Assembly: GCA_965208575.1 (NCBI GenBank)
Contig: CBDBOV010000003.1
Span: 256,001 to 320,000, forward strand
Direction of reading: 5' to 3'
Length of the DNA stretch: 64,000 nucleotides
Source of the DNA: Spirochaetia bacterium
Lineage (GTDB): Bacteria; Spirochaetota; Spirochaetia; SZUA-6; Bin103
The notes under the pieces were generated by a model. The model had not been told where the DNA came from and did no database searches. It saw only the letters and a program-made list of their open reading frames with translations. Shown here piece after piece: positions 1-45,537 of this stretch. The stretch's first letter is position 1, and each line of letters opens with the position of its first letter. Position numbers and translations under genes: made by a program.

Positions 1-75
1 CAGGCGTGAGCGTAGCCAGGGAGCGGCAAGTCGCTCCGCAATACGCTCAAAAAACAACGATCTATGGAGAAAACC

Positions 76-1902
76 ATGAATGGTATCGTAAGCGTGATGA
101 GGACCTTCGCGGTTGCGTTGGTCCTCATCCTGACCGCGACCGGCCTGTGGGCCGCTGGCGAAGAAGAGGCACCGGCAGCGGCGGCCGAGAAGGAAATGGT
201 GCTCGACCCGACCACCGGGGAGATGGTGGAGGCGCCACGATATGGCGGGACGATAACCGTTCTCAGTCATGATTGGGCTCCTGCCACTATGGACCCGTAT
301 TTTTCGGCCCCTCAGGCCCTTCAGTATCTCACCCAGGTTCTAGAGAAGCTGGCCATTGGCGACTGGGGAATAGACAGGGACGTATATGACTGGTCGGGCC
401 CCCCGGTCTTTCCTATGAGTGCCATGCGCGGGGCGCTGGCGGAAAGCTGGGAGATTTCCTCGGATAACCTCACTTATACCTTCAAGATCCGCCAGGGCGT
501 TCAGTTCCACGACAAGGCACCGGTGAACGGCCGGGAGATGACTGCCAAGGACGTAGAATACAGCTTTCAACGCATGTTGGGAAGTAAGCTGACAGGGACC
601 GAGTTCAGTGAAACCGAACCTTCCCCCCACATTGGTACTTGGAAGGCTAGACAGGTCGAATCGGTGACGGCGACGGACGAATGGACGGTTGTCATGAAGC
701 TGAAACAGCCAGACCCCATGGCGCTGAGGGATAGCATCGACACGACCGTGTTTTACATGATTCCAAGGGAGGTAATCGATACATACGGTGACATGAAGGA
801 TTGGCGGAACGCGGTCGGCACCGGACCCTTTGAGATGGCTGAGTATGTCGAGGGCAGCTCTATAACCTATACGAAGCATCCCAACTACTGGAGCTTCGAC
901 GAAAAATTCCCGGACAACCGCCTGCCCTATGTTGACGAGATGAGGTTCGTGTTCATGACCGAGCCAGCAACGAAAATTGCCGCGCTGCGCACGGCTAAGG
1001 TCGATATCCAGGGCAGTCTCACGTACGCGCTCAAAAACAAGGACGACATGGAGAGGCTGCAACGGACCAACCCTGACATCGTGATAACCGAGCATCCTAA
1101 TCGGTCGGACTACGGTATCGGCATGAACACGCAGAAGGCGCCATTTGATGACATCCAGGTACGCAAGGCAATGCAGATGGCACTGGACCGTGAGACACTT
1201 CACAATACCTACTTCAAGGGGTGGGGAAGCTGGACACCTCACTCATTGCTGGCCAACGATATGCCAGTAGTTGGCACCGCATTCGAAGAGTGGCCCGAAG
1301 AGCTCAAGAAGATCTATGACTACGACCCGACAGAGGCCGAGAGGCTCCTTGATGAGGCGGGGTATCCGCGCGGCGCCGACGGCATCAGGTTCAAGCTCAC
1401 AATGGGACATTGGGAAGGCGGCGATCTGGACTATGCACAATTGGTAGCCGTTACCTACTTTCGTGACATTGGCGTTGAGGTAGAAGTTGAGCCAGTGCCA
1501 GGTGCGGAGTGGGCAAGTTACATTAACGCTGCACAGTGGGACATGTTTGGTGGTATGACAATGGCGGCGAAGTATGGTAATCCCCTGGGTTTTTTGAGTC
1601 AGCTCGGGACGGGTGCTTCTGCGAACCGCTGCAATTGCGCCGATCCGGCTTATGACGCCATTTTGGAAGCCGCCGGAAATGCAACCACGGAAGAGGAGTT
1701 TTTGCTGCAGGTAAGAGAGCTGATTGAGCACATAAAAGAGCAGGTTTGGTTCGTCTCGGGCCCGCAAATCCCATTACTAGGCGTGCACCAACCGTGGGTC
1801 AAAGGTCTCAACAAGGAATTTTGGCTGGGAAGTAACAAGACAAATGCCATCGTCCCCCGCCTCTGGGTCGACCAGGAGTTGAAGGCAGCGATGGGTTTTT
1901 AG
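76..1902 (+). CDS. ABC transporter substrate-binding protein, family 5 (cassette U1)
   Basis: Signal peptide, P.YGG, GALAESW, GTGPF, DEAGYPRGADG motifs; GGAG RBS favours ATG at 76 over 64. Confidence 0.92.
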   Translation: MNGIVSVMRTFAVALVLILTATGLWAAGEEEAPAAAAEKEMVLDPTTGEMVEAPRYGGTITVLSHDWAPATMDPYFSAPQALQYLTQVLEKLAIGDWGIDRDVYDWSGPPVFPMSAMRGALAESWEISSDNLTYTFKIRQGVQFHDKAPVNGREMTAKDVEYSFQRMLGSKLTGTEFSETEPSPHIGTWKARQVESVTATDEWTVVMKLKQPDPMALRDSIDTTVFYMIPREVIDTYGDMKDWRNAVGTGPFEMAEYVEGSSITYTKHPNYWSFDEKFPDNRLPYVDEMRFVFMTEPATKIAALRTAKVDIQGSLTYALKNKDDMERLQRTNPDIVITEHPNRSDYGIGMNTQKAPFDDIQVRKAMQMALDRETLHNTYFKGWGSWTPHSLLANDMPVVGTAFEEWPEELKKIYDYDPTEAERLLDEAGYPRGADGIRFKLTMGHWEGGDLDYAQLVAVTYFRDIGVEVEVEPVPGAEWASYINAAQWDMFGGMTMAAKYGNPLGFLSQLGTGASANRCNCADPAYDAILEAAGNATTEEEFLLQVRELIEHIKEQVWFVSGPQIPLLGVHQPWVKGLNKEFWLGSNKTNAIVPRLWVDQELKAAMGF

Positions 1903-4347: not shown

Positions 4348-4869
4348 TTGACCCGCATTGCAGGTCCGTGCTAGGGTCGCACCGCAAAGTCATGCACGGC
4401 CCCTGTAGGCCCCCACAACAAGTCAAGTTAGCCCCCCCCCAGCTCTTCATATCCCGTAGATCGCTAACTGCTCGGGCTGGTCGCCCCGCGGGCGCCTTCG
4501 GCTTCAGCACTGGGGGTAGCGGCCGGCTCCGTGTACGTCGGCTCAGTCCACGTTCGTTCACTGACCAGCGCAACCGTCCTGGATCCCCGGTCCCCAACTC
4601 ACCGTCGCAAACGCAACGCCGTCAGGTATCTGGCTGGCCACCCTGTGGCCTGTGGCCCCGAAAAAAGCAGAAAGGAGGTGCACGCTGGTACTCGAGCAAC
4701 CACGCAACGCGCGCGGCCTGAGCCCATGAGCCCATGAGTGACGTGCCGCGCGCTGGACGATCCGAGATTGCCGTCGCTGCGCAGCCGCCCGCGTTGCGGG
4801 CGCGAAAGTGCGCAGGGAGTGGCGATTCGCTACAAATATACTCTCAAAACCCAACATACGGAGTTACGT
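4348..4869 (+). promoter_or_regulatory. Conserved cassette leader U2
   Basis: TTGACC-N18-TAGGGT 4348-4377; uORF1 4392-4721 with C9 at 4432-4440; AGGAGGTG 4673-4680 then CTG uORF2 4685-4729; hairpins to 4845; homologous to 9550-9940. Confidence 0.7.
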
Positions 4870-6690
4870 ATGAACATTGTAATGACTACAAAGACCTTCG
4901 CGGTTGCGTTGGTCCTCGCCCTGGTCGCCACCGGCGTCTCGGCGAGCCCGGCCGGGGAAGAGGAGCCGGCCGCGGCGATGGAGAAGGAGATGGTGATGGA
5001 CCCGTCCACCGGCAAGATGGTGACCGCACCCGAGTACGGCGGCACCCTCACCATCGCATCCAAGAACGAGCTCCTGGACCAGGATCCGTCGATCGGCGGA
5101 CACTGGGCCGGCTTTCAGATCATGGGGGTGAACGAGAAGCTGGCATACGTCAACTGGGCCACGCCGCGGGACGAGTACCCCTTGACCTTTTGGTACACGC
5201 CGCCCCAGCACCTCACCGGGTGGCTGGCAGAGAGCTGGTCGAATCCCGACCTGCAGACGCTCATCGTCAAGGTCCGGCAGGGCGTTCACTGGCACGACAA
5301 GCCGCCGATGAACGGACGCGAGCTGACCGCCGAAGACGTCGCCTGGACCTACCGCCGCATCGGTGGCCTCCTCGACTGGAAGCCGGAGTATACCTACGCC
5401 CTGCGCAACTTTCCGTGGGAATCCATCGAGGCCACCGACCGGTACACGGTCGAGTTCAAGCTGACCGAGCCGCGTCTGGACTTGCAGAACCAGGTGCTCA
5501 CCGAGGTCGGCGTCTGGATCCTGCCACCGGAGGTCATCGAGCAGCACGGCAACTACTCCGATTGGCGGAACGTGGTCGGCACCGGGCCGTTCATGCTGGC
5601 TGACTTCCAACCCGAGGTACGCAAGCAGTGGGTGCGCAATCCCGACTACTGGGGCTTCGACGAGAAGTACCCGGACAACCGGCTGCCCTACGTCGATGAG
5701 CTGGTGGCTCTCCATATGAAGGAAGAGGCGACCTACACTGCCGCGCTGCGCACCGGCCAGGTAGACATGCTTACTGTCGGCGGCGGCATCGCGCTGGCCA
5801 CCGTCGAAGCGGTGGATGCCATCCTGAAGACCAACCCCGACATGCAGGCAGTCCCGTTCTACAGTCGCGCACTGCAGGTGTCCGGCCTGAACATCCGCCG
5901 GCCGCCGTTCGACGACATCCGCGTGCGCAAGGCGATGAACATGGCGATCGACCGCGATGCCATCAACGAGAGCTACTACGGCGGGTATGCCTACCCGACG
6001 GTGCAGGGCTGGGTCGGCGCCGCGCTCGGCGAGATGCACACTCCGTTCGCGGAGCGGTCCGCGGATCTGCAGGCTGAGTACTCCTACCATCCGCAGGAGG
6101 CCGAGCGCTTGCTTGACGAGGCCGGCTACCCGCGCGGCGCGGACGGGGTGCGGTTCAAGGTCACCTACGACCACCGCGACGTGATCGACCTCGGATGGGT
6201 CGAGATCGTGGCCGGCTACTGGAAGGCGATCGGCGTAGAGGTGGAGATCACGGTGATGGACACCGGCGCCTGGGTCGATCGCCGCGCCCGCGGGCTCTAC
6301 GAGATGACGACCGGCGACTCCGGCTGGGATCTGAGTCCCGCGCACATCATGAGCTACTACGGCTACGTCCACAACTACCAGGGCGAAGGGCAGGCGAACC
6401 AGGCGGGCGAATACACCGGCGGGCTCAAGGACGCGACCATGAGTCGGCTCTACGAGGCGTTCCAGGCTGCGACCAGCCAAGAAGCGCGGATCCCGATCAT
6501 GCGAGAGTTCGACGATTACATCATGCGCCAGCACTTCCAGGTCTACGGCCACAAGGCGCCGGCGTTCCAGCTGGCCAACCCCTGGGTCAAGGGCTGGAAC
6601 GGCGAGACGTTCCTCACGGATATGAGCAACAACGAGATTCTGGTGCGGGTCTGGATCGACCAGGACCTGAAGGCGAAAATGGGCTTCTGA
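4870..6690 (+). CDS. ABC SBP family 5 (U2)
   Basis: Same motifs as U1; GGAG RBS before ATG 4870. Confidence 0.92.
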   Translation: MNIVMTTKTFAVALVLALVATGVSASPAGEEEPAAAMEKEMVMDPSTGKMVTAPEYGGTLTIASKNELLDQDPSIGGHWAGFQIMGVNEKLAYVNWATPRDEYPLTFWYTPPQHLTGWLAESWSNPDLQTLIVKVRQGVHWHDKPPMNGRELTAEDVAWTYRRIGGLLDWKPEYTYALRNFPWESIEATDRYTVEFKLTEPRLDLQNQVLTEVGVWILPPEVIEQHGNYSDWRNVVGTGPFMLADFQPEVRKQWVRNPDYWGFDEKYPDNRLPYVDELVALHMKEEATYTAALRTGQVDMLTVGGGIALATVEAVDAILKTNPDMQAVPFYSRALQVSGLNIRRPPFDDIRVRKAMNMAIDRDAINESYYGGYAYPTVQGWVGAALGEMHTPFAERSADLQAEYSYHPQEAERLLDEAGYPRGADGVRFKVTYDHRDVIDLGWVEIVAGYWKAIGVEVEITVMDTGAWVDRRARGLYEMTTGDSGWDLSPAHIMSYYGYVHNYQGEGQANQAGEYTGGLKDATMSRLYEAFQAATSQEARIPIMREFDDYIMRQHFQVYGHKAPAFQLANPWVKGWNGETFLTDMSNNEILVRVWIDQDLKAKMGF

Positions 6691-6782
6691 CCCCGGCCGG
6701 CAGAGGGTCGAACCAACGCGGGGTGGCGGGGACGACCTGCCACCCCGTTTTCTTGCGCAACGGAGTGTGGAGGTGAGCTGAC

Positions 6783-7751
6783 GTGCGGGCGTATTTGATC
6801 AGGCGGGTGCTGCTGGTCATCCCCACCATCTTGATCATCACTGTCCTGGTGTTTCTGTCGGTGCGCTTCATTCCCGGCAGCGTCATCGAGGTGATGGTCG
6901 CCCGGATGGGCTACGAAGGCGGCGGCGCGATCGACATTGCTGCCGCGAAAAAGCGGCTCGGGCTCGACGTCCCCGTTCCCGTGCAGTACGGGCGGTGGAT
7001 CGGGAACATCGTCGTGCGTGGCACCCTCGGCAGCTCGCTATACGGCGGCTCGAGCGGCTACACCGTGGAGGCGATGATGGCCTCCAGGATAGGCGTGACC
7101 CTGGAGCTGGGGCTGCTGGCGATCCTGACCGGTTTGATCATCGCGGTGCCGATCGGTATCTATTCGGCGATTCGGCAGTACACGGTGGCCGACTACGCTG
7201 GCCGCTCGGCGGCGATCGTCGGCCTGTCGACCCCGAACTTCTGGCTCGCGCTGCTGGTCATCATCTATCCGGCCATCTGGTGGGGGTGGACGCCGCCGCT
7301 GACGCACGTCCGCTTCGCCGTCGACCCGCTGGCGAACCTCACCATGTTCCTGTTTCCCGCCCTGATCCTGGGGACCTACCTGGCGGCCAGCACGATGCGC
7401 ATGACCCGCACCATGATGCTGGAGGTGCTGCGCCAGGACTATGTAAGGACGGCTTGGGCCAAGGGCCTGCAGGAGCGCAGGGTGGTGCTCCGGCACGTCG
7501 TCAAGAACGCCCTCATCCCGGTGGTCACGCTGATCGGCCTGCAACTGCCGATCATCGCCGGTGGCTCGGTGATCATCGAGACCATTTTCAACCTGCCCGG
7601 GCTCGGACGCCTGATGCTGAGCGCGCTCAACCTGCGCGACTACCCGGTGGTGTCCGGCGTGAACCTGTTCTTCGCCTCGGTGGTGGTGCTGATCAACCTC
7701 GCCACCGACCTGGCGTACGCCTACCTGGATCCGAGGATCCGCTATGAGTGA
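6783..7751 (+). CDS. OppB-type permease (U2)
   Basis: EAA loop, LDPRIRY. Confidence 0.93.
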   Translation: MRAYLIRRVLLVIPTILIITVLVFLSVRFIPGSVIEVMVARMGYEGGGAIDIAAAKKRLGLDVPVPVQYGRWIGNIVVRGTLGSSLYGGSSGYTVEAMMASRIGVTLELGLLAILTGLIIAVPIGIYSAIRQYTVADYAGRSAAIVGLSTPNFWLALLVIIYPAIWWGWTPPLTHVRFAVDPLANLTMFLFPALILGTYLAASTMRMTRTMMLEVLRQDYVRTAWAKGLQERRVVLRHVVKNALIPVVTLIGLQLPIIAGGSVIIETIFNLPGLGRLMLSALNLRDYPVVSGVNLFFASVVVLINLATDLAYAYLDPRIRYE

Positions 7752-8736
7752 GTCGAATGCGTCGAATGCGCCGCTTTCGGTCGACGCGGGCGGCAGTCCG
7801 GTGGGTGAGGCGGCGCGTGACCCGGGCGGCGGCCGGCGCCGCCCCTTGACTGACTTCTTCGGTCGATTGCTGCGCCAGCAGCCGCTGGGCGCCGCGGCCG
7901 GCGTGGTCCTGTTGGGGCTGATCTTCGTCGCCGTCTTTGCCGAGCAGTTGACGCCGCACGAGTACGACATCGGCCGCGTGCAGGACCGCTTGCAGGCGCC
8001 CTCCGCCGAGCACCCGCTCGGCACCGATCACGCCGGCCGCGACGTGCTGGCGCGGATCCTCAAGGGCGCTCAGGTGTCGCTGCTGGTGGGGCTGATAGCG
8101 ACCCTGCTGAACACCATCGTGGCGCTGCTGGTGGGCGGCACCACGGGCTTCATCGGCGGCCGGGTCGACATCTACGCCCAGCGCTTCGTCGATGCCTGGA
8201 TGTCGTTCCCGGGATTGCTGCTGCTGCTCACCATCATGTCGTTCGTCGATCGCAGCATCGTCACGGTGATCGTGGTGCTGGGTGTCACCGGCGGCATTCC
8301 GGCGTCGCGGGTGGTGCGCGGCGCGGTGATCGGCGTCAAGGAGAACGCCTACTTCCAAGCCGCGGAGGCGGCCGGCGCGCGCCGGCGCCGGATCCTGGTG
8401 CGCCACGTGCTGCCCAACATCGCCGCGCCGCTGATCGTGATCTTCAGCATCAACGTCGGCAGCGTCATCATCGCCGAGGCCAGCTTGAGCTTCCTCGGTT
8501 TCGGCCTGCCGGTGAACGTGCCGAGCTGGGGCGGCATGCTGAGCCGCGAAGGGCGGAGGTACATGGAGCTGGCGCCGCGGCTGGCGCTGTGGCCCGGTCT
8601 GTTCCTGACGGTGACGGTGTACTGCCTCAACATGGTGGGCGACGCGGTCCGCGACCTGCTCGACCCGCGCCTGCGCGGCACCGCCGGCCGCTACGGGGGC
8701 TCCACGTCCCGCCGCCGCGGAGTTGGCACGCCCTGA
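7744..8736 (+). CDS. OppC-type permease (U2)
   Basis: LGTDHAGRD, RHVLPN, DAVRDLLDPR; overlaps oppB stop. Confidence 0.93.
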   Translation: MSESNASNAPLSVDAGGSPVGEAARDPGGGRRRPLTDFFGRLLRQQPLGAAAGVVLLGLIFVAVFAEQLTPHEYDIGRVQDRLQAPSAEHPLGTDHAGRDVLARILKGAQVSLLVGLIATLLNTIVALLVGGTTGFIGGRVDIYAQRFVDAWMSFPGLLLLLTIMSFVDRSIVTVIVVLGVTGGIPASRVVRGAVIGVKENAYFQAAEAAGARRRRILVRHVLPNIAAPLIVIFSINVGSVIIAEASLSFLGFGLPVNVPSWGGMLSREGRRYMELAPRLALWPGLFLTVTVYCLNMVGDAVRDLLDPRLRGTAGRYGGSTSRRRGVGTP

Positions 8737-9425: not shown

Positions 9426-9964
9426 TTGACGGCTGTTGCAGAGCCGGCTATGGTGAACACGTTGGGATCGCGACCGATGCGCATGATGCATGACGACCCG
9501 AACCCGCGCAGCCACTGGTGGCCCTCGAAGCGGCCGGTGATACGTCTGTCCCCCCCCCCCCCCCCAGCGTTTTCGTACATCCGGTAGATCACTAACCGTA
9601 ACCGCTCGGGCTGGTCGCGCCGCGGGCGCTTTCGCCTTCAGCACCGGGGTAGCGGGCGGCTGCGCCGGGCGCCGGCTCAGTCCACGTTCGCTCACTCGTT
9701 CACTGACGCCCGCCACGGTCCTGGATCCCCCTTCCACTGGTCAATCACGTCATCACATCCACAACAACCCGGTATTCCCGGCGTACAGGAGGTGCAAAGT
9801 GGTACGCAAAGAACCGGACGCGCGCGCGGCGTAAGCCCCGTGAGTCACGCGCCGCGCGCCTGCGGAGTTGACTCTGTTCGAACGCCTGCGTTGCGGGCGC
9901 TGAGAGTACCGGAAGCGGCAATCGCTACCCGATACTCTCGAAATCTTTCTATCAGGAGTTGGTT
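9426..9964 (+). promoter_or_regulatory. Conserved cassette leader U3
   Basis: TTGACG-N17-TATGGT 9426-9454; uORF1 9477-9587 (36 aa) with C16 at 9550-9565; AGGAGGTG then GTG uORF2 9799-9834 MVRKEPDARAA; hairpins to 9939. Confidence 0.75.
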
Positions 9965-11218
9965 ATGAACCATATAGCAAAGACCTGCGCGGTTGCGCTG
10001 GTCCTGGGCCTTGTGCTGACCGCAACCGGCCTGTGGGCCACCGGCGGCACGGAGGAGCCGGCAGCCGCCGCCGAGAAGGAAATGGTGCTCGATCCCACCA
10101 CCGGCGAAATGGTGGAGGCCCCACGATATGGCGGGACATTGACCTACGCCGAACGGGTCGAGCCGCCGGGTACCGACCCCTGGAACCAGGGCCACGGACC
10201 AAGGGGCGTCGATGGCGTTGCAGAGAAACTGGGCATCGCGAACTGGGGAATAGATAGGGATGAATTTGGCTTCGAAAGCAGGTACGTCCCGCTATTTGCC
10301 ATGAGACCGAATCTGGCGGAAAGCTGGGAAAAGCCCGACCCGCTGACTATTATCTTCAAAATCCGCCCGGGCGTTCGCTGGCACGATAAGGCACCGATGA
10401 ACGGTCGGGAGCTAACTGCCCAAGATGTCGAATACAACTTTCACCGCTATACGGGTCTGGGCAGCGGCTTCACCGAACCTAGCCCCTTCGACCCGATGAA
10501 GGCCGCGACATGGGAATCGATTACGGCCACCGACGATTCCACGGTTGTTTTTAAGTTAAAGGCGCCACGCAACGACGCGCTGGAGACTATCATCAGCGGC
10601 TGGTTTCTTTTGATAATGCCCCCCGAGGTAATCGAGCAACATGGTGACGTTCAGGACTGGAGGAACCTGGTAGGCACCGGGCCCTATATGCTGACGGACT
10701 GGGTCAAGGGCAGCTCGATGACCTATACCAAGAATCCGGACTACTGGGGCACCGACGAAAAATACCCAGAGAACCGGTTGCCCTATATTGACCAGTTAAG
10801 ACGGGTGATTATGCCCGAACAAGCAACATTTCTGGCGGCACTGCGCTCGGGTAAGCATGATATCATAGGTATACCCGGCGACACTCAGTTGGGGGATATC
10901 GGCCAGGTAGAGGCCCTCAAACGGACCAACCCCGAGATCAGGTTGTACCCGTGGTATCTAAGGTCGGGCACCTCTGTTACTTTCAACCTGCGCAGGGAGT
11001 CGCTCTTTAACGACATCCGGGTACGCCAGGCCATGCAGATGGCCATTGACCTGGAGACAATGTGGTACATATGGGGTCCTAAACCTCCCTCGTTCAATGC
11101 ATCCCAGCCATGGATCAAAGGCTATAACGGTGAAGTCGAACTGGGACTGTCTCGCTCAGTTGCCATGTTGGCCCGCATCTGGATTGATAGTGATCTGAAG
11201 CAAGAGATGGGAGGCTAG
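9965..11218 (+). pseudogene. ABC SBP family 5 with in-frame internal deletion (U3)
   Basis: About 417 aa versus about 600; jumps from MAIDLET to WYIWGP near 11060, lacking the DEAGYPRG region. Confidence 0.8.
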
Positions 11219-11319: not shown

Positions 11320-12279
11320 GTGAGAGCCTATATCATCAGGCGCTTGTTGCTGGTCATCCCCACCCTGCTGCTCCTGAGCATCATCGTCTTTCTCACCGTG
11401 CGCTTCATCCCCGGCGACGTCATAGACGCCATGTTGAGTGAGATACAATGGGTGGGTGGCGGAGATATGGACCGTGCAACGCTCGAGCGTCGGCTGGGAT
11501 TGGACGTGCCGGTGTGGGTGCAGTATGGACGCTGGATCGGCGACATGTTCCGGCACGGCAGCCTGGGCCGATCACTGTGGCGCGATTGGACGGTAGAGGA
11601 GGAGATACTCTCCCGGTTGCCGGTCACCATCGAGCTTGGCCTCCTGGCCATCGTCATCGGGCTCGTGATCGCGCTGCCGGTGGGCATCTACTCGGCGATG
11701 CGCCAGGATACCGCCGCCGACTACCTGGGACGCTCGGTCGCCATCATCGGCCTGGCCACGCCGAACTTCTGGCTCGCCATCATGGTGTTGATCTATCCGA
11801 CCATCTGGTGGGGCTGGACCCCGCCGCTGGAATACGTTCCGTTCGCCGAACACCCGCTGGACAATCTCGCGGGGTTCTTGATCCCCAGCCTGATCCTGGG
11901 GACGGCCATGGCCGCCGCCACCATGCGGATGACGCGCACCATGACGCTGGAGGTGCTGCGGCAGGACTACATCCGCACCGCCTGGTCCAAGGGGATGGCG
12001 GAGCGGGTGGTGATTGTCCGGCACACCCTCAAGAATGCCCTCATCCCGGTGGTGACCCTGGTCGGCCTGCAGATGCCGATCCTGGTCGGAGGCGCGGTGA
12101 TCATGGAGAACATCTTCGCCCTGCCGGGACTCGGCCGTCTCATGCTCAATGCCCTGCAAAGCCGTGACTACCCGGTGGTGCAGGGAACCAACCTGTTCTT
12201 CGCCACCGGGGTGGTGCTGCTCAACCTTCTCATCGACCTGATCTATCCCTACCTGGACCCGAGGGTACGGTATGAGTAG
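11320..12279 (+). CDS. OppB-type permease (U3)
   Basis: Full-length paralogue. Confidence 0.93.
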   Translation: MRAYIIRRLLLVIPTLLLLSIIVFLTVRFIPGDVIDAMLSEIQWVGGGDMDRATLERRLGLDVPVWVQYGRWIGDMFRHGSLGRSLWRDWTVEEEILSRLPVTIELGLLAIVIGLVIALPVGIYSAMRQDTAADYLGRSVAIIGLATPNFWLAIMVLIYPTIWWGWTPPLEYVPFAEHPLDNLAGFLIPSLILGTAMAAATMRMTRTMTLEVLRQDYIRTAWSKGMAERVVIVRHTLKNALIPVVTLVGLQMPILVGGAVIMENIFALPGLGRLMLNALQSRDYPVVQGTNLFFATGVVLLNLLIDLIYPYLDPRVRYE

Positions 12280-21382: not shown

Positions 21383-23200
21383 CTAACGACCCATGGCGTT
21401 CTTCAGCTCACTATCGATCCAGATCCGGGCTTGGACGGTATTACGTTCACCCCATCCCATTCCTGCTTCACCGAAGAAACCCTCGACCCACGGCTGGCTC
21501 ACGGAAAACCGAGGGGACTTGGATTTGACCAGGCCCCAGTGCTCCCTCACCGTGATCTCATCGGCCTGTCTCAAAAGACTCTTATACTCCTCCAAGTCGG
21601 TAGTTTCTTGGGAGGCAAGATACAGGGCGTCCATACGCGGGTCCTTCGCTTTGTCGTAGCTCCAGCCAAAGTTTTGGCTAATCCCCTTCATGGGGTTCCA
21701 AAAGGTGACGCTGCTGCCGCCATTGTATCCCCCTTGCACTAGCGCCCACTCGTGCGTGTCCGCGCTATTGTCAGCGTTATGCTCAGCGATAGTCTGCGGA
21801 ACAAGCTCGCCTTCAACGCCAATGGCGTCGAAGTACCCCATGATGAGTTCTGCATAGTCTGTGGTGTACCTCTCAAAGGCCCTTACCTTGAGCTTGAATC
21901 TATAGCCGTCGGCGCCGCGCGGATACCCGGCCTCATCAAGGAGCTCCTCGGCCCTTTCGGGGTTATAGGTATATTCTTGCTTGACCTCCTCGGGCCACTC
22001 TTCATATGGCCAGGCCCACCCTTCTTCAAGATCTTGTCTCATTAACCCGGCAGGAGCTGGATCTCCATAACCCTTAAAGAAGCTGGCGGAATTCGCCTCG
22101 CGGTCCACTGACATCTGCAGTGCCTTGCGCACAATGGGGTTGTCAGTGGGCGGCAACGCCCAGTTAAAAACGAAAGCGCCGGCCGGTGGCCCAAGAAAGG
22201 GCCACACCTCGATTTCAGGGTTGGTCCGCTCGAGGGTCTCCAGATCGTCGACATTGTATATCCAAGAGTCGCCGAAGTTACCCATCACATCAATTTTGCC
22301 CGTGCGGAATGCCGCCAGACGTGCTGACATCTCTGTCATCATCAGGGACCTTAACTCGTCAATATAGGGTAGCCGGTTCTCCGGGAATTTTTCGTCGTAG
22401 CCCCAGTAGTTAGGATTCTTCTCCCAGGTTACAGAGCTGCCGTCCACGTACTCAGTCAGTCTCCAGGGCCCGGTGCCGACCAGGTTCCTCCAGTCTTTGG
22501 CGTCTCCGTATTTCTCGATTACCTCGGGAGCGTACGCAACCCAGTAGGGGTTGAGCAGTTTCCCCGGCACATCGAGGGTAGGCTCCGTCAGCTTCATAAC
22601 TACCGTCCATTTGTCGGTGGCCGTTACCGATTCGAGACCTACACCCCAGGTGGTAGCAAATGTATGGGCGCTAGGTCCGGCTTCGGTGAAGTCGCCCAGA
22701 CCGAAATAGCGGTGATAGTTGTATTCGACGTCATAGGCATCGAACTCCCGACCGTTCACCGGCTCCTTATCGTCCCAGTAAACGCCCTTGCGGATGTTCC
22801 AGATGAACGTTGTGTCGTCGGGCATCGACCAGCTTTCAGCCAGAGCCCCTGTAGTCATCTCTGGGGTCACAGTGACGTAGTCTCTACCGTTCCATATGTC
22901 CCTGGATAGTGCCCAGTTGGCGAAGGCCAGCCTCTCATTAACACCACCGACAAAGTGATGCGCCCAGCCACTGACCCACCAATGGTCAGCATTCTCAGGA
23001 TACGCCGTAGCGGCCCACGTGAGTGTGCCGCCGTACTCCGGCGCGGTCCACGTCATGCCGGTGGCGGGGTCGAACACCGTCTCTTTGTCGGCAGCGGCTG
23101 CCGGCTCCCCTTCGCTGGCCGCGCCGGCCCAGAGGCCGGTTGCGGGCAGAACGAGGACCAACGCAACCGCGAAGATCCTCGTCGTTTGTACAATAAGCAT
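21383..23200 (-). CDS. ABC SBP family 5 (U5)
   Basis: Same motifs; GGAG RBS. Confidence 0.92.
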   Translation of the reverse strand: MLIVQTTRIFAVALVLVLPATGLWAGAASEGEPAAAADKETVFDPATGMTWTAPEYGGTLTWAATAYPENADHWWVSGWAHHFVGGVNERLAFANWALSRDIWNGRDYVTVTPEMTTGALAESWSMPDDTTFIWNIRKGVYWDDKEPVNGREFDAYDVEYNYHRYFGLGDFTEAGPSAHTFATTWGVGLESVTATDKWTVVMKLTEPTLDVPGKLLNPYWVAYAPEVIEKYGDAKDWRNLVGTGPWRLTEYVDGSSVTWEKNPNYWGYDEKFPENRLPYIDELRSLMMTEMSARLAAFRTGKIDVMGNFGDSWIYNVDDLETLERTNPEIEVWPFLGPPAGAFVFNWALPPTDNPIVRKALQMSVDREANSASFFKGYGDPAPAGLMRQDLEEGWAWPYEEWPEEVKQEYTYNPERAEELLDEAGYPRGADGYRFKLKVRAFERYTTDYAELIMGYFDAIGVEGELVPQTIAEHNADNSADTHEWALVQGGYNGGSSVTFWNPMKGISQNFGWSYDKAKDPRMDALYLASQETTDLEEYKSLLRQADEITVREHWGLVKSKSPRFSVSQPWVEGFFGEAGMGWGERNTVQARIWIDSELKNAMGR

Positions 23201-24187
23201 ACGTAACTCCGTATCTTGATTTTTGAGAGTATTGCGGAGCGGATTGCCCTCCCTGGCTACTCTCGGGCCCGCAACGCGGACGGCCAGTCCGAGTCAAGCT
23301 CCTGAGGCGCGCGGCGTGTGACTCACCGGGTTCGCCCGGGCTCACGCCGCGCGCGCGTGCGGTTCTTTGAGTATCATTTGCACCTCCTGGTGCGCCGGCA
23401 AAAACCGGCAAGGTTGTTGTAGCGACCCGCGGCGGCGCCGAGTCATGCATCGTCGCTCGCAAGGGTGGGGAGCTGCCGCAGGCGGCGCGGCTATGGTGAA
23501 CCCTACACGGGCACGCAGGCGGAAACGCCGGACACAGCCAAGGGAGCACCTACGGTCACGCCGGCCGGTAGCGCCCGGGCCGCGGAGCGGGTGGAGGGAA
23601 GGGGCCTGGCCAAAGGGAATCCGCGCCAGCAAAACGCGTCCCGGACACCGTGCCGGATGGGCGTGCGCAGTGCGCCGGAGCGGATACGTCAAGCAGCGCG
23701 ATCCCTTATAGCGCCATGGCACAGGCGTGCCCCTTCCTTTTGTATGGGTGCCGGCAACGCCCTCTGGTGTGGACTGGTGGAGGTTGCGGCCGACGGGGTC
23801 GGCCGTTGGACTCACGGATGTGCGGCGGGTGTGCGCCACACCGATTGATGGTGCCGCAGCCAGCACCGGCGCCGCGCACTGGGCTGCTGCGCGGTTGGCC
23901 GGGCGGCTCCTAGTAGCGCTCGGCTGTCGCGCGGTTAGCTGAGCGGCTAACGGTAGTCGGGTAGACTGCTGCCGGGGGGGGGGGCGGGTAAACGCGCCGG
24001 CCGCTTTGGGGCTAACGAGTTGCTGCGCGGGTAGGGGTCGTCGGGCATCATGCGCATCGGTCGCGAATCCATGGCCGTCAATGATAGCCGACGTCGCAAG
24101 CGCCGGCCGTCAGGCACATGTGGTAGCATCCGCATCGGTCAGGCTCCCAAGGTTGGTCAGCATAGCCGACGCGGCAACAACCGTCAA
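23201..24187 (-). promoter_or_regulatory. Conserved cassette leader U5
   Basis: TTGACG-N17-TATGCT 24187-24159; uORF1 24057-23947 (36 aa) with C11 at 23974-23984; AGGAGGTG then ATG uORF2 23377-23342 MILKEPHARAA; hairpins to 23225. Confidence 0.75.
23505..23700 (+). other. Possible group II intron remnant inside the U5 leader
   Basis: GGCGGAAACGCCGGACACAGCCAAGG and GCGGAGCGGGTGGAGGGAAGGGG..GGGAAT blocks, then SRTPCR..SAPERIRQAAR; resembles recalled intron and RT-start patterns; absent from other leaders. Confidence 0.5.
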
Positions 24188-39467: not shown

Positions 39468-39973
39468 TTGACACCTGGCCTCGTCCATGCCATGGTTGCG
39501 CGAAGCGGGCCGATGCGTATGACGCGTAACGACACCCTTCAGCGTTGCTTCCGGACGGTGGTCTTGCAACCGGTGCGCCCCCCGGCCGCGGAGGCGATAC
39601 ACCTAACTCTCCATCCTGCAGAAACAACCGAACGCTCCGGGCGACCGGGCGGCGCGTACGGGTGCTCCTGCGCGTGCCCTCGCCTTCGGCATCACACCGT
39701 CGACTATCGAACTACCGAGCCAGACCATCCGGGCGGCCCAGGCGGCAACCCGCGCGTGAGATCCGCCAAACGGGGAGGTGCACGTTGGTACGCAAGGAAC
39801 CACGCCACGCGCGCGGCCTGAGCCCATGAGCCCATGAGGCACCCGCCGCGCGCACGACGATCCGTGATTGCCGCCGCTGTTTGGCCGCCCGCGTTGCGGG
39901 CGCGAGAGTGGCAGGGAGCGGCAACTCACCATGGCAGAACTCTCAACACACAGAGAATCGAGGAGTGATCAAT
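39468..39973 (+). promoter_or_regulatory. Conserved cassette leader U7
   Basis: TTGACA-N17-CATGGT; uORF1 39513-39821 with C6 at 39578-39583; GGGAGGTG then TTG uORF2 39785-39829. Confidence 0.72.
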
Positions 39974-41773
39974 ATGGATCTTCCAAGAATCGCACACACC
40001 TTCGTGTGTGTGCTCGTGCTCGGCTTGGCCGCAACCGGCCTGTGGGCGGCTGCGGCGGAAGAGGAGCCGGCCGCGGCGATGGAGAAGGAAATGGTGCGCG
40101 ACCCGGCCACCGGCGAGATGGTCAGCGCGCCTGAGTATGGCGGGACATTTACCTATGCCACGTCGCTCGAGGCTCCGCATGCCGACACCCACGTCAGTCA
40201 TCTCCCGGGGCTGGTCACCAGCGGTGTCACGGAGAAGCTCGGAATCATGGACTGGGCAGTAGACCGGGACGTGTTTTCGTTCAGTCACTGGTACATGCCG
40301 CCATCCCTCTTTGTACCGCACCTGGCTGAGAGCTGGGACACCCCTGACCCACTCACGATCATCTTCAACATTCGCCAGGGCGTGTACTGGCAAGACAAGG
40401 CACCGATGAATGGGAGAGAGCTGACCGCTGATGATGTCGTATTCAACTTTCATCGCCAGCTGGGCCTGGGCGACTTTGCCGAAGCCGGACCGAGCCCCTT
40501 TACGTATGAGCGGCCACCACTGGGCGGGTCGGTAACGGCCACCGACCGATACACGGTCGTTATCGAGCTGGCGGAGCCGAGCAGCGGAGCTCTTGGGCAG
40601 TATCTCGGCATCGGTCTCACCTACATAAACCCCCCCGAAGTCATCAAGGAACACGGTGACATGAAGGACTGGAGGAACCTGGTCGGTACCGGTCCCTACA
40701 TGCTGACCGACTGGACCGAGGGCAGCTCCATGACCTTGCAGAGGAATCCTGATTACTGGAAAGACGATGAGAAGTACCCGGGGAATCGTCTGCCCTATAT
40801 CGACGAGATACAGGGCCTTTTCATCAAAGAGGAAGCAACAATTCTGGCGGGACTGCGCACGGCCAAGATTGACTTCATGGGGAGCACTACCGGTCCGCCC
40901 AACATCACATCGGTCGAAGTGCTCGACAGCATCCGCAAGAGCAATCCCGAAATCGTGCTGCAGCCGTGGTGGAGCCGTTCCGTAAACTCGTTTGTTATGG
41001 ACGCGAGCAAGCCGCCCTTTGACGACATCAGGGTGCGCAAAGCAATGCAGATGGCAATCGACCTCGAGGGCATTGACCGCGACTTCTACAAGGGCACTTC
41101 GATGTGGCAGCCTCAGGGGATAGTGGGGGAAGGCATCACCGAGTATTTCACCCCATTTGAAGAGTGGCCAGAAGAGGTCAAGAAGGGCTATCGGTACGAT
41201 CCGGCGGGGGCGGAAGCCTTGCTGGATGAGGCCGGATATCCGCGCGGTGCGGACGGCACCAGATTCAATACCACACTGAACGTTTCTGCTACACTCGATA
41301 TAGGCTACAGCGAACTGGCTGGTACGTACTGGGCTGAGATCGGCGTCGACGTGCAGATCAACCCATGGGATACTGGCCCCTTTGGGGCTGCTCGAAGGGA
41401 CCGTACTTGGGACGGTCTGATGTGGGAGCCTCTGGGCACGAATGGTAATCCCATGTCGTATATACGCGGCTCCGTACACTCGAGCAGTATGAATGACTTG
41501 CACGGAATCAGGTATCCTGAGTTGGACTCCCTTATTGAAGCCGCCGAAGCCACTGATTCCGAACAGGAGCGGCAGAAACTGGCTAAAGAGGTGGATCTGT
41601 ACACCATGGCGAACCACTGGTGGATATGGGGCCCTAAAACCGGCAGCTACATGGCGCACCAGCCGTGGATCGCCGGCTTCAACGGTGAAGTCTGGCTGGG
41701 ACGCATGGACTTCCTCACCGTCATCGCGCGCGTCTGGATCGACAGTGCGCTGAAGGCGGAAATGGGCAATTAG
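39974..41773 (+). CDS. ABC SBP family 5 (U7)
   Basis: GAGGAG RBS, family motifs. Confidence 0.92.
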   Translation: MDLPRIAHTFVCVLVLGLAATGLWAAAAEEEPAAAMEKEMVRDPATGEMVSAPEYGGTFTYATSLEAPHADTHVSHLPGLVTSGVTEKLGIMDWAVDRDVFSFSHWYMPPSLFVPHLAESWDTPDPLTIIFNIRQGVYWQDKAPMNGRELTADDVVFNFHRQLGLGDFAEAGPSPFTYERPPLGGSVTATDRYTVVIELAEPSSGALGQYLGIGLTYINPPEVIKEHGDMKDWRNLVGTGPYMLTDWTEGSSMTLQRNPDYWKDDEKYPGNRLPYIDEIQGLFIKEEATILAGLRTAKIDFMGSTTGPPNITSVEVLDSIRKSNPEIVLQPWWSRSVNSFVMDASKPPFDDIRVRKAMQMAIDLEGIDRDFYKGTSMWQPQGIVGEGITEYFTPFEEWPEEVKKGYRYDPAGAEALLDEAGYPRGADGTRFNTTLNVSATLDIGYSELAGTYWAEIGVDVQINPWDTGPFGAARRDRTWDGLMWEPLGTNGNPMSYIRGSVHSSSMNDLHGIRYPELDSLIEAAEATDSEQERQKLAKEVDLYTMANHWWIWGPKTGSYMAHQPWIAGFNGEVWLGRMDFLTVIARVWIDSALKAEMGN

Positions 41774-41856
41774 CTCTCCCTCCGGAGGGGGACAGGACAA
41801 CGGATTGTCCTCCTCCGAGGGTCAGATGACGGGAAGATCGCGGTGAGGCGCAGCAC

Positions 41857-42810
41857 ATGAAAGCCCACGTCATCAGGCGGTTGCTGCTGGTCATCCCCAC
41901 CCTGTTCATCCTCAGCATCCTGGTCTTTCTGTCGGTCCGCTTCATTCCGGGTGATGTGATCGACGTGATGCAAGGCAGGCTGGGCGGCCTGGGGCAGGTG
42001 GACCGTGCAGCGCTCGAGCGGATGCTGGGACTGGACCAGCCGGTGTACGTGCAGTACGGGCGCTGGTTGGGCGATATCCTGCTGCACGGCAGCCTGGGCC
42101 GCTCGCTGATGGGCGACTGGTCGGTAGAGGAGAAGATTCTCGCTCGATTGCCGGTCACCATCGAATTGGGCGTGCTGTCAATCGTCATCGGGCTGTTGAT
42201 CGCGCTCCCGGTCGGCATCTACTCGGCGATTCGCCAGGATACGGCGGTCGACTACGCCGGCCGCTCCATCGCCATCCTGGGCCTGGCAACGCCCAACTTC
42301 TGGCTCGCCCTGATGGTGATGATCTACCCGGCGATCTGGTGGGGCTGGTCGCCGCCGATGCGGCTGATCACGTTCAGCGAAGACCCGCTGGGGAACCTGG
42401 GCATGTTCCTGATTCCGAGCCTGATCCTGGGGACCTACCTGGCCGCCGCCACCATGCGCATGACGCGCACCATGATGCTGGAAGTGCTGCGCCAGGACTA
42501 CATCAGGACGGCGTGGTCCAAGGGCCTGAAGGAGCGGGTGGTGGTGGTGCGGCACGCGGTCAAGAACGTGCTGATTCCGGTGGTTACGCTGATCGGCCTG
42601 CAGTTGCCCATCCTGGTAGGCGGCGCCGTGATCATCGAGAATATCTTCAACCTGCCCGGTTTGGGCCGCCTGATGCTGGTGGCTCTCACTGACAGAGACT
42701 TCCCGGTGGTCGCCGGCATCAACCTGGTGTTCGGCACCGCGGTGATGGGGATCAACCTGATGATCGACCTGGTCTATGCGGTCCTGGATCCCCGGGTCCG
42801 GTACCAGTAG
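41857..42810 (+). CDS. OppB-type permease (U7)
   Basis: Full-length. Confidence 0.93.
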   Translation: MKAHVIRRLLLVIPTLFILSILVFLSVRFIPGDVIDVMQGRLGGLGQVDRAALERMLGLDQPVYVQYGRWLGDILLHGSLGRSLMGDWSVEEKILARLPVTIELGVLSIVIGLLIALPVGIYSAIRQDTAVDYAGRSIAILGLATPNFWLALMVMIYPAIWWGWSPPMRLITFSEDPLGNLGMFLIPSLILGTYLAAATMRMTRTMMLEVLRQDYIRTAWSKGLKERVVVVRHAVKNVLIPVVTLIGLQLPILVGGAVIIENIFNLPGLGRLMLVALTDRDFPVVAGINLVFGTAVMGINLMIDLVYAVLDPRVRYQ

Positions 42811-42829
42811 GGGCCGGGGACGTGGCAGC

Positions 42830-43708
42830 ATGCGCACGCGGTTCCTGACCCGGCTGGTCAGGGAGAAGCCGCTCGGCACGGCCAGCGGCATCGCCGTAGT
42901 GATCCTGATTCTGGTGGCCATCTTCGCCGACGTCCTCGCTCCCTATCCCTACGGGGAACGGCACCTGCCGGACCGCCTGCAGGGCTCATCGGCCCAGTAC
43001 CTGCTCGGTACCGACCACCTGGGGCGCGACCTCCTGAGCCGCATCATCCACGGCGCCCGGGTCTCTCTGACGGTGGGTCTGGCAGCCACCACGGTCAACG
43101 TGCTGGTCGCCGTACTGATCGGCGGCACGTCGGGATTCCTGGGCGGCAGGCTGGACCTGGTGGTGCAGCGGTTCGTGGATGCCTGGATGTCGTTCCCGGG
43201 ACTGCTGCTGTTGTTGACCGTCATATCGATCGTGGGCCAGGGGCTGCTGCAACTGATCGCGGTCCTGGGCATCTCGGGCGGCATCGTCGGCTCGCGCGTG
43301 CTCAGGAGCGCGGTCATCGGGGTAAAGGGGAACGACTATTTTCAGTCGGCGGTGGCGATCGGCGCCTCGCAGTGGAAGATCATCGTCCGCCACGTGCTGC
43401 CCAACATCGCGGCACCGATCATCGTGGTATTCAGCATCAACGTGGGGGGCGTGATCATCTCGGAGGCTGCGTTGAGCTTCCTGGGCTTCGGCCTGCCGAT
43501 CGAGATTCCGAGCTGGGGCGGGATGCTGAGCCGGGAGGGACGCCAGTACATGGAGGCGGCGCCGCACCTCGCGTTGTGGCCCGGCCTGGCGTTGACGGTC
43601 ACCGTGTACAGCCTGAACATGCTCGGCGACGCGGTGCGCGACCTGCTCGACCCGCGGCTGATCGGTGGCGCCGGCCGCCTGGGCGCGCAAGACACCCGGT
43701 CCGTGTAG
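42830..43708 (+). CDS. OppC-type permease (U7)
   Basis: Full-length; start uncertain. Confidence 0.92.
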   Translation: MRTRFLTRLVREKPLGTASGIAVVILILVAIFADVLAPYPYGERHLPDRLQGSSAQYLLGTDHLGRDLLSRIIHGARVSLTVGLAATTVNVLVAVLIGGTSGFLGGRLDLVVQRFVDAWMSFPGLLLLLTVISIVGQGLLQLIAVLGISGGIVGSRVLRSAVIGVKGNDYFQSAVAIGASQWKIIVRHVLPNIAAPIIVVFSINVGGVIISEAALSFLGFGLPIEIPSWGGMLSREGRQYMEAAPHLALWPGLALTVTVYSLNMLGDAVRDLLDPRLIGGAGRLGAQDTRSV

Positions 43709-43899
43709 CCGACGTTTAGTTTAGGCGCTGACGAGAGCTTGACTGACTACCGCGCATGTGAGACCGTGCCGCACCGTCGTAGCGCACACGAAGTGGGGCA
43801 AGGCGGCGGTTCCGGCCTTGTATCTGCGGCCACATGCCTTGCCGAAAGACAACACGAGCGATATCCTTGTAGTGACTGTGAGGCCACCGAGGGAAGAAT

Positions 43900-44157
43900 A
43901 TGCCCACGATTCTGTTTATTCTTGGCTGGCGATTGTTCTTTTACACAAATGAACGGCGTGAACCGCCTCATATTCATGGCCGTAAGGGTGATTGTGAATG
44001 CAAGTATTGGTTGGATACTGAAGACTACGATGTTCTTGAAGCTTACTGTTACAACATGAGCCCAAGGGATAAACGAGCAATTCGTAAAATCATTTTTGAT
44101 CATTTCGACTACATAATAGCGGAATGGAATCGAGTCCATAAAATGCGCAATGGATAA
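43900..44157 (+). CDS. DUF4160 protein
   Basis: MPTI..GWRLFFY.NE..EPPHIH; AT-rich. Confidence 0.82.
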   Translation: MPTILFILGWRLFFYTNERREPPHIHGRKGDCECKYWLDTEDYDVLEAYCYNMSPRDKRAIRKIIFDHFDYIIAEWNRVHKMRNG

Positions 44158-44416
44158 ACACTACAAGATAATCAAAGTGTCCTTTGAGGACGATACGATG
44201 GTACTACAGGTTGATGGTAATACCCATTTGATCAATATCAAAGGGCAGTCCCAAAGACTCGCCATGGCCTCACAAGCACAGCGGCAACACTATGTTGTCT
44301 CGCCTGCGGGATACGGAATTCACTGGCCGCTAGTCGACGAGGATCTTTCTATCGACGGCCTGATTGGCATTGAACACGCGCCTCCCCTGCACGAGGAATC
44401 CAGTCGGGTCCGCTAA
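44150..44416 (+). CDS. DUF2442 protein
   Basis: GYGIHWP.VDEDLSIDGL; overlaps DUF4160. Confidence 0.82.
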   Translation: MDKHYKIIKVSFEDDTMVLQVDGNTHLINIKGQSQRLAMASQAQRQHYVVSPAGYGIHWPLVDEDLSIDGLIGIEHAPPLHEESSRVR

Positions 44417-44534
44417 TGGTCTGACATTGAGTCCGCGCTACGACACGGCGAGGCGAAGGCGCGCTGCGGCATTCGCGGGTCCGGCAGGTCGCGTCGCACC
44501 GGCAGTCCTCTATGGCCAGCGTTACCTTGAGGCT

Positions 44535-45400
44535 CGCGAACCACAGCAGCCGAAAGGCCCGGCTGCCGCGCAGCAACTCTCCGTAGCCGCCACGGCTACG
44601 CATGGCACGCCTCCGGCCGGCGCTGCGCCCGAATAACACCACTGCCGCGCAGCGATTCGCCGCCGCGTTCACGCATGCGGCGCCCCCGGCGGTGACCACG
44701 ACGGGCGCCCGCGGCGGAGTTGGAGCGAGCCGTCGCGTGTCTCCTGATCGGTTGGCGGGATGGTGGAGATACCTGTCGCCGGCGTCAACAAGCAGATGCA
44801 ATTCGCGCAATGGGGTTGGAGGTGCTGATCGAGTTGGTCGAGCGCGCCGGGGTGCTGATGAGCGCCGCCAAGCCGGGGTAGGTTACATACCTCGCCATGA
44901 CTGCCGCCCACCCGCTGCCGCTCTCGTATATTGTGAGAACCTACGAGCTGAGTCCCGCGGTGCTGGAGACGGCAGCGCGGGCGGCGAAGCCGCAACGCTG
45001 GGAGGCGCTGATGTCAACGGTCGCGGAAGCATGGATGCGGGAGGGCAAGGCCGAGGGCAAGGCCCAGGGTAGAGCCGAGGGCAAGGCCGAGACGCTGCTT
45101 CGTCTTTTGCAGCGGCGATTCGGTCCCGTTGCGGAGAGTGCTCGGGCACGGGTGGCGGGCGGGTCGGCGGCGGAGATCGATGCCTGGTTCGATGCCCTGC
45201 TTGACGCGCAAAGCCTGACGGAGGTGTTCGACGCCCATCCGCAGTGAGCGCCGCCCGACCGCTCGGTGTGAGGCGAAGAGGTAACCGACCCATGCCGGCC
45301 CCCGTTCTGCTGACGGACCAACAGGTTCAGGACTACCTGACCCATGGCTACCTGGTGCGGCGATGCGGCCATCCGGCTGCGGTGCACCGGCGCATCCTGC
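44535..45400. pseudogene. Collapsed copy of 58880-60670 carrying an Rpn/DUF4351 C-terminal fragment
   Basis: MFS 5' end, DUF1801 3' end and PhyH 5' end in the same order; EGKAEG..LLRLLQRRFG at 44930-45247. Confidence 0.75.
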
Positions 45401-45537
45401 CGCCGCCGCCGTCAAGTCGCGCGGACGACCCCGCCGACCCCGCGAGGGCCACGATCTTGCGCCGCTTGCACTCTCGTGGCGGATGTGATAGAGTGACGAA
45501 ATGAAGCGAGCGAGAGCAACCGCTCAACCGCTCGCGT

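Follow-up and report, generated by a model that had tools for sequence, protein, structure and literature searches.

The window analysed here, a 64,000-nt stretch from the genome of a Spirochaetia bacterium (contig CBDBOV010000003.1, positions 256,001 to 320,000), carries several copies of an mRNA leader of about 190 nt that sits directly 5' of ATP-binding cassette (ABC) transporter genes for family-5 solute-binding proteins (SBP; SBP_bac_5, PF00496). The leader opens with a Shine-Dalgarno (SD) sequence and an upstream open reading frame (uORF) with the consensus product MILKEPHARAA*, whose final codons form the 5' arm of a G+C stem, P1. Judging from the pattern of substitutions among the copies, the uORF is very probably translated and under selection at the level of its peptide. 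The leader is probably cis-regulatory for the SBP gene, and the best explanation, to which we incline with moderate confidence, is a cis-acting leader in which the dwell time of a ribosome on the uORF and P1 tunes expression.

The window contains the nine-base SD-like word GGAGGTGCA exactly five times, at 4674, 9788, 39774 and 45861 on the plus strand and at 23379-23387 on the minus strand, against 0.80 +/- 0.93 occurrences in dinucleotide shuffles (five were reached in one of 100). The stem-arm pattern GCGCGCGGC-N15-45-GCCGCGCGC has five matches at the same five sites, and none of 100 shuffles contained any. These counts confirm an earlier note on this DNA, which had described five sites combining the SD word, a mini-ORF and this stem, and its readings of the mini-ORF stand as well: GTG 9799 (VRKEPDARAA*), ATG 23377 (ILKEPHARAA*), TTG 39785 and 45872 (VRKEPRHARGLSP) and CTG 4685 (VLEQPRNARGLSP). 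We name the copies U1 to U5 by position. When the five sites are aligned, conservation begins at the SD-like word and ends about 190 nt later at the start codon of an ORF of about 600 residues; the SBP genes are followed by two BPD_transp_1 permease genes. A sixth leader copy lies at window positions 1-95, its 5' end cut off by the start of the window.

The coding test comprised 83 distinct copies from eight genomes, with changes counted by parsimony on a tree derived from the sequence downstream of the ORF. In codons 3-6 (L-K-E-P), 6, 9 and 48 changes fell on codon positions 1, 2 and 3, respectively (binomial p=4e-12), and codons 4-6 (K, E, P) underwent 42 codon changes versus 9 amino-acid changes. 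Amino-acid changes per codon change amounted to 0.29 in the uORF frame versus 0.93 and 0.95 in the other two frames. The two-fold sites of AAA and GAA, at which A to G is the one silent change, had undergone 19 transitions and 2 transversions, whereas the four-fold sites of CTN and CCN, where any change is silent, showed 8 transitions and 19 transversions (Fisher p=2.7e-5 for the contrast). Such a signature of the genetic code is hard to obtain from RNA constraints; 3-nt periodicity, frame-specific saving of amino acids and the contrast between two-fold and four-fold sites therefore argue for a peptide under selection that is very probably translated. The amino acid varies freely at codons 7 and 8, and codons 9-11 double as stem sequence, peptide and RNA constraints being inseparable there.

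Signals for initiation accompany the frame. An NTG start is present in 71 of the 83 copies (ATG 55, GTG 9, TTG 4, CTG 3), and an SD core of 4 nt or longer lies within 18 nt of the start in 62 of the 83, with a spacing of 5-6 nt in 51; the 3' end of the 16S rRNA, ...CACCTCCTTT, carries CCUCC. Among 57 near-complete copies in the bacterium's own genome, the start is ATG in 35, GTG in 6, TTG in 4, CTG in 3 and another codon in 9, the ORF has 11 codons in 41, and the stop is TGA in 47. The SD core, the NTG starts, the periodicity and the frame-specific pattern of transitions and transversions support the conserved leader peptide that had been proposed. Codon choice in the uORF is unusual: AAA is found in 74 of 83 copies and GAA in 67 of 83, and these make up only 24% and 40% of the Lys and Glu codons in the SBP genes. 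The uORF favours AAA, GAA and ATA where the SBP genes favour AAG, GAG and ATC. These A-ending minor codons therefore point to a second, nucleotide-level constraint, either an open A-rich initiation region or slow decoding. Two copies elsewhere in the genome (C5:323646 and C6:981287) have a 2-nt deletion in a GC run that yields a 40-codon frame through P1 and P2; these natural frameshift variants could be used as controls.

The leader is repeated throughout the 6.5-Mb genome, a repetition that the earlier note had missed; there a profile search with nhmmer found 62 copies and covariance model R1, built from 55 leader copies, found 63; 60 of the 62 directly precede an SBP homologue. In seven related genomes of the genus the copy number is 84, 43, 35, 33, 5, 1 and 1, for a total of about 265 over the eight genomes. 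In a DNA search of 41 genomes the leader was confined to eight genomes of this genus, that of the bacterium included. It was not found in another three genomes of the genus or in 13 from its sister genus (DNA search, and covariance model over the 24 genomes of the family), nor, at the sensitivity of the DNA search, in 17 genomes from seven other families of the order; three leader-negative genomes are only 76-88% complete, and these results mean not found in the genomes searched, not absent. Among 66 loci from the species collection that encode SBP relatives, the covariance model matched two, both in one 7.0-Mb record. The leader-negative genomes looked at are without the expanded SBP subfamily, and their distant SBPs lie behind short plain leaders. 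In other uncultured lineages, the leaders upstream of SBP relatives (55-65% identity) are unrelated. In such loci (L093-L102, locus positions about 900-1260), the SBP relatives are preceded by AT-rich modules of about 110 nt, between one and three in tandem, and every module has an SD, an ATG and a conserved G+C hairpin; this is a different repeated leader or N-terminal repeat system.

Conservation is centred on the mini-ORF. Most SBPs encoded behind the copies share only 40-47% protein identity with the SBP encoded at 21383-23200; the leaders show mean pairwise column identities of 0.67-0.83, with the peak of 0.83 in the 30-nt window holding the mini-ORF. Upstream of the SD, column identity is at background (0.42-0.47), and the conserved block therefore starts at the SD of the mini-ORF. 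Rfam 15 gave no match in the window at the gathering score (0), and at E up to 1 on three loci only two chance-level matches were obtained, v-snoRNA and ilvB-OMG on the opposite strand. Neither the peptide nor the leader was found described in the PMC open-access and bioRxiv literature, supplements aside. The element is an undescribed, genus-restricted and massively amplified family that unites a leader peptide with a structured leader.

Structure statistics come from 63 distinct copies aligned with guidance from the model, and were similar on a MAFFT alignment. In the proposed structure, 92.1% of the cells form standard pairs, versus 31-53% when the partners are slid, and 16 pairs have changed on both sides, versus 7.9 +/- 1.7 in shuffles (16 reached in 0 of 500). 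The final codons of the uORF form the 5' arm of a GC stem pairing downstream in all five copies of the window, as the earlier note had stated, and the uORF overlaps the 5' arm of P1 in all copies. Beyond the mini-ORF and P1, at least five further helices, missed in that note, occur in the leader of about 190 nt:

P1: 12-bp G+C stem, 97.8% of cells paired, nearly invariant.
P1a: apical hairpin, 83.1% of cells paired.
P2: GAGUCA in the P1 loop with UGACUC downstream, 92-96% paired; a crossing contact that hardly varies and has almost no covariation.
P3: CUGGC with GCCAG inside P5, 93.1% paired; a crossing contact that hardly varies.
P4: hairpin, 99.2% paired, with C-G to U-G variation at two pairs.
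P5: GAGAGUA/UACUCUC, enclosing P6, 94.7% paired, double changes present.
P6: hairpin inside P5, 91.5% paired, double changes present.
Start hairpin: in most copies the loop holds the main SD and the 3' arm the AUG; 76.5% paired, all five pairs changing on both sides.

The uORF is A-rich and unpaired over its first 22 nt, and the 5' arm of P1, closed in the consensus by the stop codon, follows from nt 23; the distance from the start codon to the first P1 base is 23 nt in 68 of 82 copies. In nested models the domain downstream of P1 folds independently. P2 and P3 are candidate pseudoknot contacts. The start-codon hairpin looks like a CsrA site; control by CsrA through this hairpin was dropped as an idea, CsrA not being found in the genome.

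In copy U2, the site under study, the following features were located:

9788 to 9964, plus strand: leader copy U2, from the SD of the uORF to the last base before the SBP start (covariance model R1 match 9783-9984, 143.5 bits).
9788 to 9792, plus strand: SD core GGAGG of the uORF, complementary to the 3' end of the 16S rRNA.
9799 to 9834, plus strand: uORF with GTG start, 11 codons and TAA (MVRKEPDARAA*), from translation and coding signature.
9822 to 9833, plus strand: 5' arm of P1, with GCGCGCGGCG paired and the TA of the stop unpaired in this copy despite its alignment with the arm.
9842 to 9847, plus strand: 5' strand of P2 (GAGTCA) within the P1 loop, a candidate pseudoknot or alternative helix.
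9848 to 9859, plus strand: 3' arm of P1, CGCGCCGCGCGC.
9869 to 9874, plus strand: 3' strand of P2 (TGACTC).
9883 to 9899, plus strand: P4 hairpin, CGCCTGC-GTT-GCGGGCG.
9902 to 9939, plus strand: P5 (GAGAGTA/TACTCTC) around P6 (GAAGCGG/TCGCTAC).
9955 to 9967, plus strand: main SD (GGAG) and ATG of the SBP gene, from the sequence.
9965 to 11218, plus strand: truncated SBP_bac_5 gene of 417 aa (Pfam profile positions 2-234 of 368).

Behind U2 the SBP gene is truncated, whereas the leader and the permease gene at 11320-12279 are intact. The other copies and their genes are arranged as follows:

23201 to 23387, minus strand: leader copy U3, nearest to the family consensus (covariance model R1 match 23181-23393, 224.1 bits).
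23342 to 23377, minus strand: uORF of U3, ATG...TGA, MILKEPHARAA*; the last two pairs of P1 involve the T and G of its stop codon.
23343 to 23354, minus strand: 5' arm of P1 in U3, GCGCGCGGCGTG.
23307 to 23318, minus strand: 3' arm of P1 in U3, CACGCCGCGCGC.
21383 to 23200, minus strand: SBP_bac_5 gene behind U3, 605 aa.
4674 to 4869, plus strand: leader copy U1, class B (covariance model R1 match 4669-4889, 139.7 bits).
4685 to 4729, plus strand: uORF of U1, CTG start, 14 codons and TGA (L/M VLEQPRNARGLSP*), with the stop in the apical hairpin inside P1.
4709 to 4753, plus strand: P1 hairpin of U1, arms 4709-4720 and 4742-4753.
4870 to 6690, plus strand: SBP_bac_5 gene behind U1, 606 aa, then permease genes 6783-7751 and 7744-8736.
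39774 to 39973, plus strand: leader copy U4, class B; uORF 39785-39829 (TTG, VRKEPRHARGLSP*), P1 arms 39809-39820 and 39842-39853.
39974 to 41773, plus strand: SBP_bac_5 gene behind U4, 599 aa.
45861 to 46060, plus strand: leader copy U5, a duplicate of U4; uORF 45872-45916 (TTG, VRKEPRHARGLSP*), P1 arms 45896-45907 and 45929-45940.
1 to 75, plus strand: 3' part of the sixth leader, from the 3' arm of P4 to the start hairpin, before the SBP gene 64/76-1902 (covariance model R1 match 1-95, model positions 123-214; Pfam).

U4 and U5 belong to a tandem duplication of leader, SBP gene and two permease genes (39500-45600 and 45600-51700), with an offset of 6087 nt at the leader and of 6073 nt further on; the leaders and the 200 nt upstream of them are near-identical between the two units. 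About 200-250 nt upstream of leader copies there are homopolymers, an 18-C tract at 9549-9566 and a C9-G6 tract at about 45660-45675, which may be assembly-prone or phase-variable tracts.

The uORF and P1 meet in different ways in these copies. The earlier note had placed the stop codon inside the GC stem; it lies between the two arms in all five copies, and strictly within the stem only at 23377, where its first two bases are paired. At 9799 the TAA begins right past the last paired base, and at 4685, 39785 and 45872 the TGA is found 7 nt past the 5' arm, as part of the apical hairpin enclosed by P1. The complementarity between the loop GAGTCA and a downstream TGACTC, ascribed in that note to U3 and U5, was found at 23377 and also at 9799 and is missing at 45872, as at 39785 and 4685, GAGGCA or GAGTGA standing in its place.

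With a footprint of the usual size, an initiating ribosome would fit 5' of P1, the leading edge of an elongating one would meet P1 with Glu and Pro in the P and A sites, respectively, and a terminating ribosome would enclose the whole 5' arm. Because the 3' end of the uORF is this arm, a ribosome at the stop codon would have to have melted P1, and because the arm would lie wholly inside the terminating ribosome, translation of the uORF and folding of P1 should be mutually exclusive; we infer this exclusion from footprint geometry. Most likely, the conserved peptide would then act inside the ribosome and set its dwell time there, and the dwell time might tune SBP expression across the whole paralogue family via leader folding, mRNA life-time or access of Rho, which is encoded in the genome. 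The peptide itself is a candidate short arrest or regulatory peptide. It is a possibility, though an unlikely one, that the K-E-P core, perhaps with the R-A-A-stop end, is a new arrest peptide that holds the ribosome against or inside P1 on one global signal and thereby switches nutrient-uptake systems together; an exit-tunnel metabolite, the capacity of translation factors or release factors, or the supply of charged tRNA might be that signal.

The region upstream of the leader and the available RNA libraries add the following. Promoter-like hexamers of the type TTGAC(A/G/C/T)-N17-18 were seen by eye 50-75 nt upstream of the uORF start in eight copies of the genome (e.g., C2:537313, C6:1346662 and C6:801428), and one such hexamer lies about 345 nt upstream of U2. 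A non-conserved hairpin is located between the TTGAC-type hexamers and the SD, and likewise just upstream of the SD in most copies. A k-mer comparison of the 400-nt regions that precede 53 copies of the genome showed no motif common to all. About a third of the copies (window 4450-4570 and 9580-9710, and about 20 further copies in the genome) have a second conserved module 120-260 nt upstream of the uORF that shares the words TAACCGC, GATCGCC, CGCCTTC and CTTCACC; it could be a promoter or operator or a further part of the leader. Between the SBP stop at 6690 and the permease start at 6783, a 13-bp terminator-like hairpin with a T-rich tail is present at 6718-6748 on the plus strand, which fits expression of the SBP above that of the permease. 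Related sequence occurs in RNA runs labelled sponge metagenome. In four sponge metatranscriptome contig sets the summed depth, which adds up many paralogues and organisms, is high on the conserved leader and low upstream of the SD, and one RNA-library contig (X11 record 2) covers 23133-23265, with more than 31 letters on either side of the SBP start at 23200.

Several observations weigh against tuning by ribosome dwell. The RNA-library contigs are no evidence of a transcription start, of transcript level or of translation, since their depths are sums, RNA libraries may contain DNA, and contigs do not show transcript ends. All copies are paralogues within one genus, and part of their conservation may stem from recent duplication or gene conversion; these processes would not, however, create the codon pattern. 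P1, P2 and P3 are almost invariant and receive little support from covariation (in P1 a double change occurs at one of the 12 pairs). Single-sequence folding energies are not distinguishable from those of shuffles, four stretches of about 100 nt around P1 having z-scores of +0.72, -2.08, -0.85 and -0.93, and the case for the stem therefore rests on conservation across copies. Twelve of the 83 copies have no NTG start, and six of these retain K-E-P and normal length; either translation is dispensable there or the start was lost recently, and other uORF defects are commoner in copies without NTG (6/12) than in those with it (13/71, p=0.026). On the sense strand of the leaders U1, U2 and U3 there is no terminator-like site (hairpin plus U tract). 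Finally, when the uORF and 12 nt beyond it were held single-stranded in 52 copies, the accessibility of the main SD went from 0.52 to 0.54 and that of the AUG from 0.24 to 0.25, i.e., there was no consistent refolding toward the main SD or AUG in these calculations, which consider nested structures and leave pseudoknots outside the model. The earlier note had proposed that a terminating ribosome melts the stem and the leader refolds: the melting of P1 is retained on geometric grounds, and the refolding is not borne out. That a ribosome on the uORF changes the leader fold, and thereby access to the main ribosome-binding site (RBS), is doubtful.

Among the explanations considered, dwell-time tuning ranks first, a constitutive stabiliser second and a downstream domain that binds a ligand or protein third. 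As a constitutive 5' module for expression or stability, the leader would carry a ribosome on the mini-ORF by a stable hairpin, which would protect the SBP mRNA and raise its level; no signal would be sensed, and the peptide would be kept for its effect on dwell. This is conceivable, and in its favour are the position of the SD and uORF at the 5' edge of the conserved block, the promoter-like hexamers 50-75 nt upstream in eight copies, the extra hairpin just upstream of the SD in most copies, the hairpin at 6718-6748 after the SBP gene, which suits high expression of the SBP relative to the permease, and the fact that no predicted refolding reaches the main RBS. We judge it unlikely. It leaves unexplained why 140 nt of structure beyond P1 are conserved and partly pseudoknotted, and the 95%-complete genome yielded no RNase J C-terminal domain, which weakens protection from a 5' exonuclease without excluding it. 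In the third explanation the P3-P6 domain would bind a ligand or regulator and the uORF would serve as the expression platform. The leader resembles typical aptamer folds in its numerous conserved unpaired bases and its pair of crossing helices (P3 with P5), Rho is encoded in the genome, and translated uORFs that modulate riboswitch-controlled genes are reported in PMC11260477. Such a riboswitch-like or protein-binding leader is quite unlikely: no Rfam family matched at the gathering score or at E up to 1, the pseudoknots are without covariation-grade support, CsrA as a possible regulator was not found, and one leader for about 60 paralogous SBPs of presumably different specificity argues against a substrate-specific ligand.

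If the 'ORF' were untranslated and its conserved bases served RNA structure or a binding site, the six copies that retain the sequence without an NTG start would be expected, and the preference for A-ending codons, which runs against genomic usage, would also fit; in the alignment, ATACTC...AAA recurs near the 3' arm of P5, and the uORF start could compete for the 5' arm of P5 with 5 bp. However, the change of CTC to CTG in 8-9 copies breaks this 5-bp alternative pairing and is uncompensated, and the periodicity, the amino-acid saving and the contrast between two-fold and four-fold sites are hard to derive from RNA constraints, which makes a purely RNA-level element very improbable. Still less credible is a classical ribosome-mediated transcription attenuator of the trp/his/leu-leader type that senses charged tRNA, the sense in which 'attenuator-like' in the earlier note is not supported. 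A short leader ORF does overlap a G+C hairpin, and GCG (Ala) makes up 3 of its 11 codons; these three codons, however, belong to the stem sequence and are dictated by it, the class B copies have only one Ala codon, and no regulatory codon run was found, MILKEPHARAA containing eight different residues. The missing hairpin-plus-U-tract contradicts this type of control, the genes downstream encode transporters rather than biosynthetic enzymes, and no Rfam leader family matched.

Dwell-time tuning invites comparison with arrest-peptide leaders such as tnaC, secM, ermBL/ermCL and speFL, in which the amino-acid sequence is conserved, the ribosome covers RNA that is otherwise paired, and the stop or last codons lie at a critical place. 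The present leader resembles them in that the uORF peptide is under amino-acid selection and a ribosome on the uORF would cover a pairing strand of P1. It differs in that no link from P1 to the main RBS, to a terminator or to a rut site is visible and in that there are 33-84 copies per genome versus one. Apart from a possible loose R-A-x-(A site) resemblance of its end to that of SecM, the peptide has no evident sequence likeness to tnaC, secM, ermBL/ermCL or speFL. With trpL, hisL, leuL, thrL and pheL the leader has in common an SD, a start and an ORF of roughly 10-20 codons that overlaps the first hairpin strand, but it has no regulatory codon run, terminator, biosynthetic gene or Rfam match. 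The ermC leader and the cryIIIA STAB-SD are 5' mRNA stabilisers with a bound or stalled ribosome that need no conserved peptide. A strong SD followed by structure is shared with these and would suit highly expressed binding-protein mRNAs; unlike them, the present leader has a conserved peptide and 140 nt of further conserved structure. The nearest described architecture of a structured leader plus a translated uORF that we found is that of the B12 riboswitch leaders of Mycobacterium tuberculosis metE and ppe2, where, according to PMC11260477, translated uORFs suppress or enable the downstream gene. Those leaders likewise combine a long structured leader with a short ORF, but they contain a B12 aptamer, whereas the present leader has no known aptamer and its uORF lies 5' of the structured domain.

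The genes behind the leader encode the most abundant class of uptake protein in sponge-dwelling bacteria that feed on dilute organic matter. A role as a stabiliser only would still explain a striking repeat family, which merits an entry in an RNA family library for the annotation of the mini-ORF and leader. It is rare for selection to act on the sequence of a leader peptide itself, and the well-studied cases of tnaC, secM, the erm leaders and speFL have each informed our understanding of how ribosomes sense small molecules or force. The candidate described here is only 11 residues long, and its comparative signature is unusually clean because one genus supplies hundreds of natural copies. If the leader is regulatory, a large paralogous transporter family would be co-controlled without a dedicated protein regulator, and the combination of SD, 11 codons and a 12-bp stem would be a compact new part for the interplay of ribosome, hairpin and nascent chain. 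If the peptide should prove to be an arrest peptide that responds to a global signal, one tiny sensor in 33-84 copies would co-switch many nutrient-uptake systems in uncultured sponge-associated bacteria, a regulon built from a nascent-peptide sensor in place of a transcription factor.

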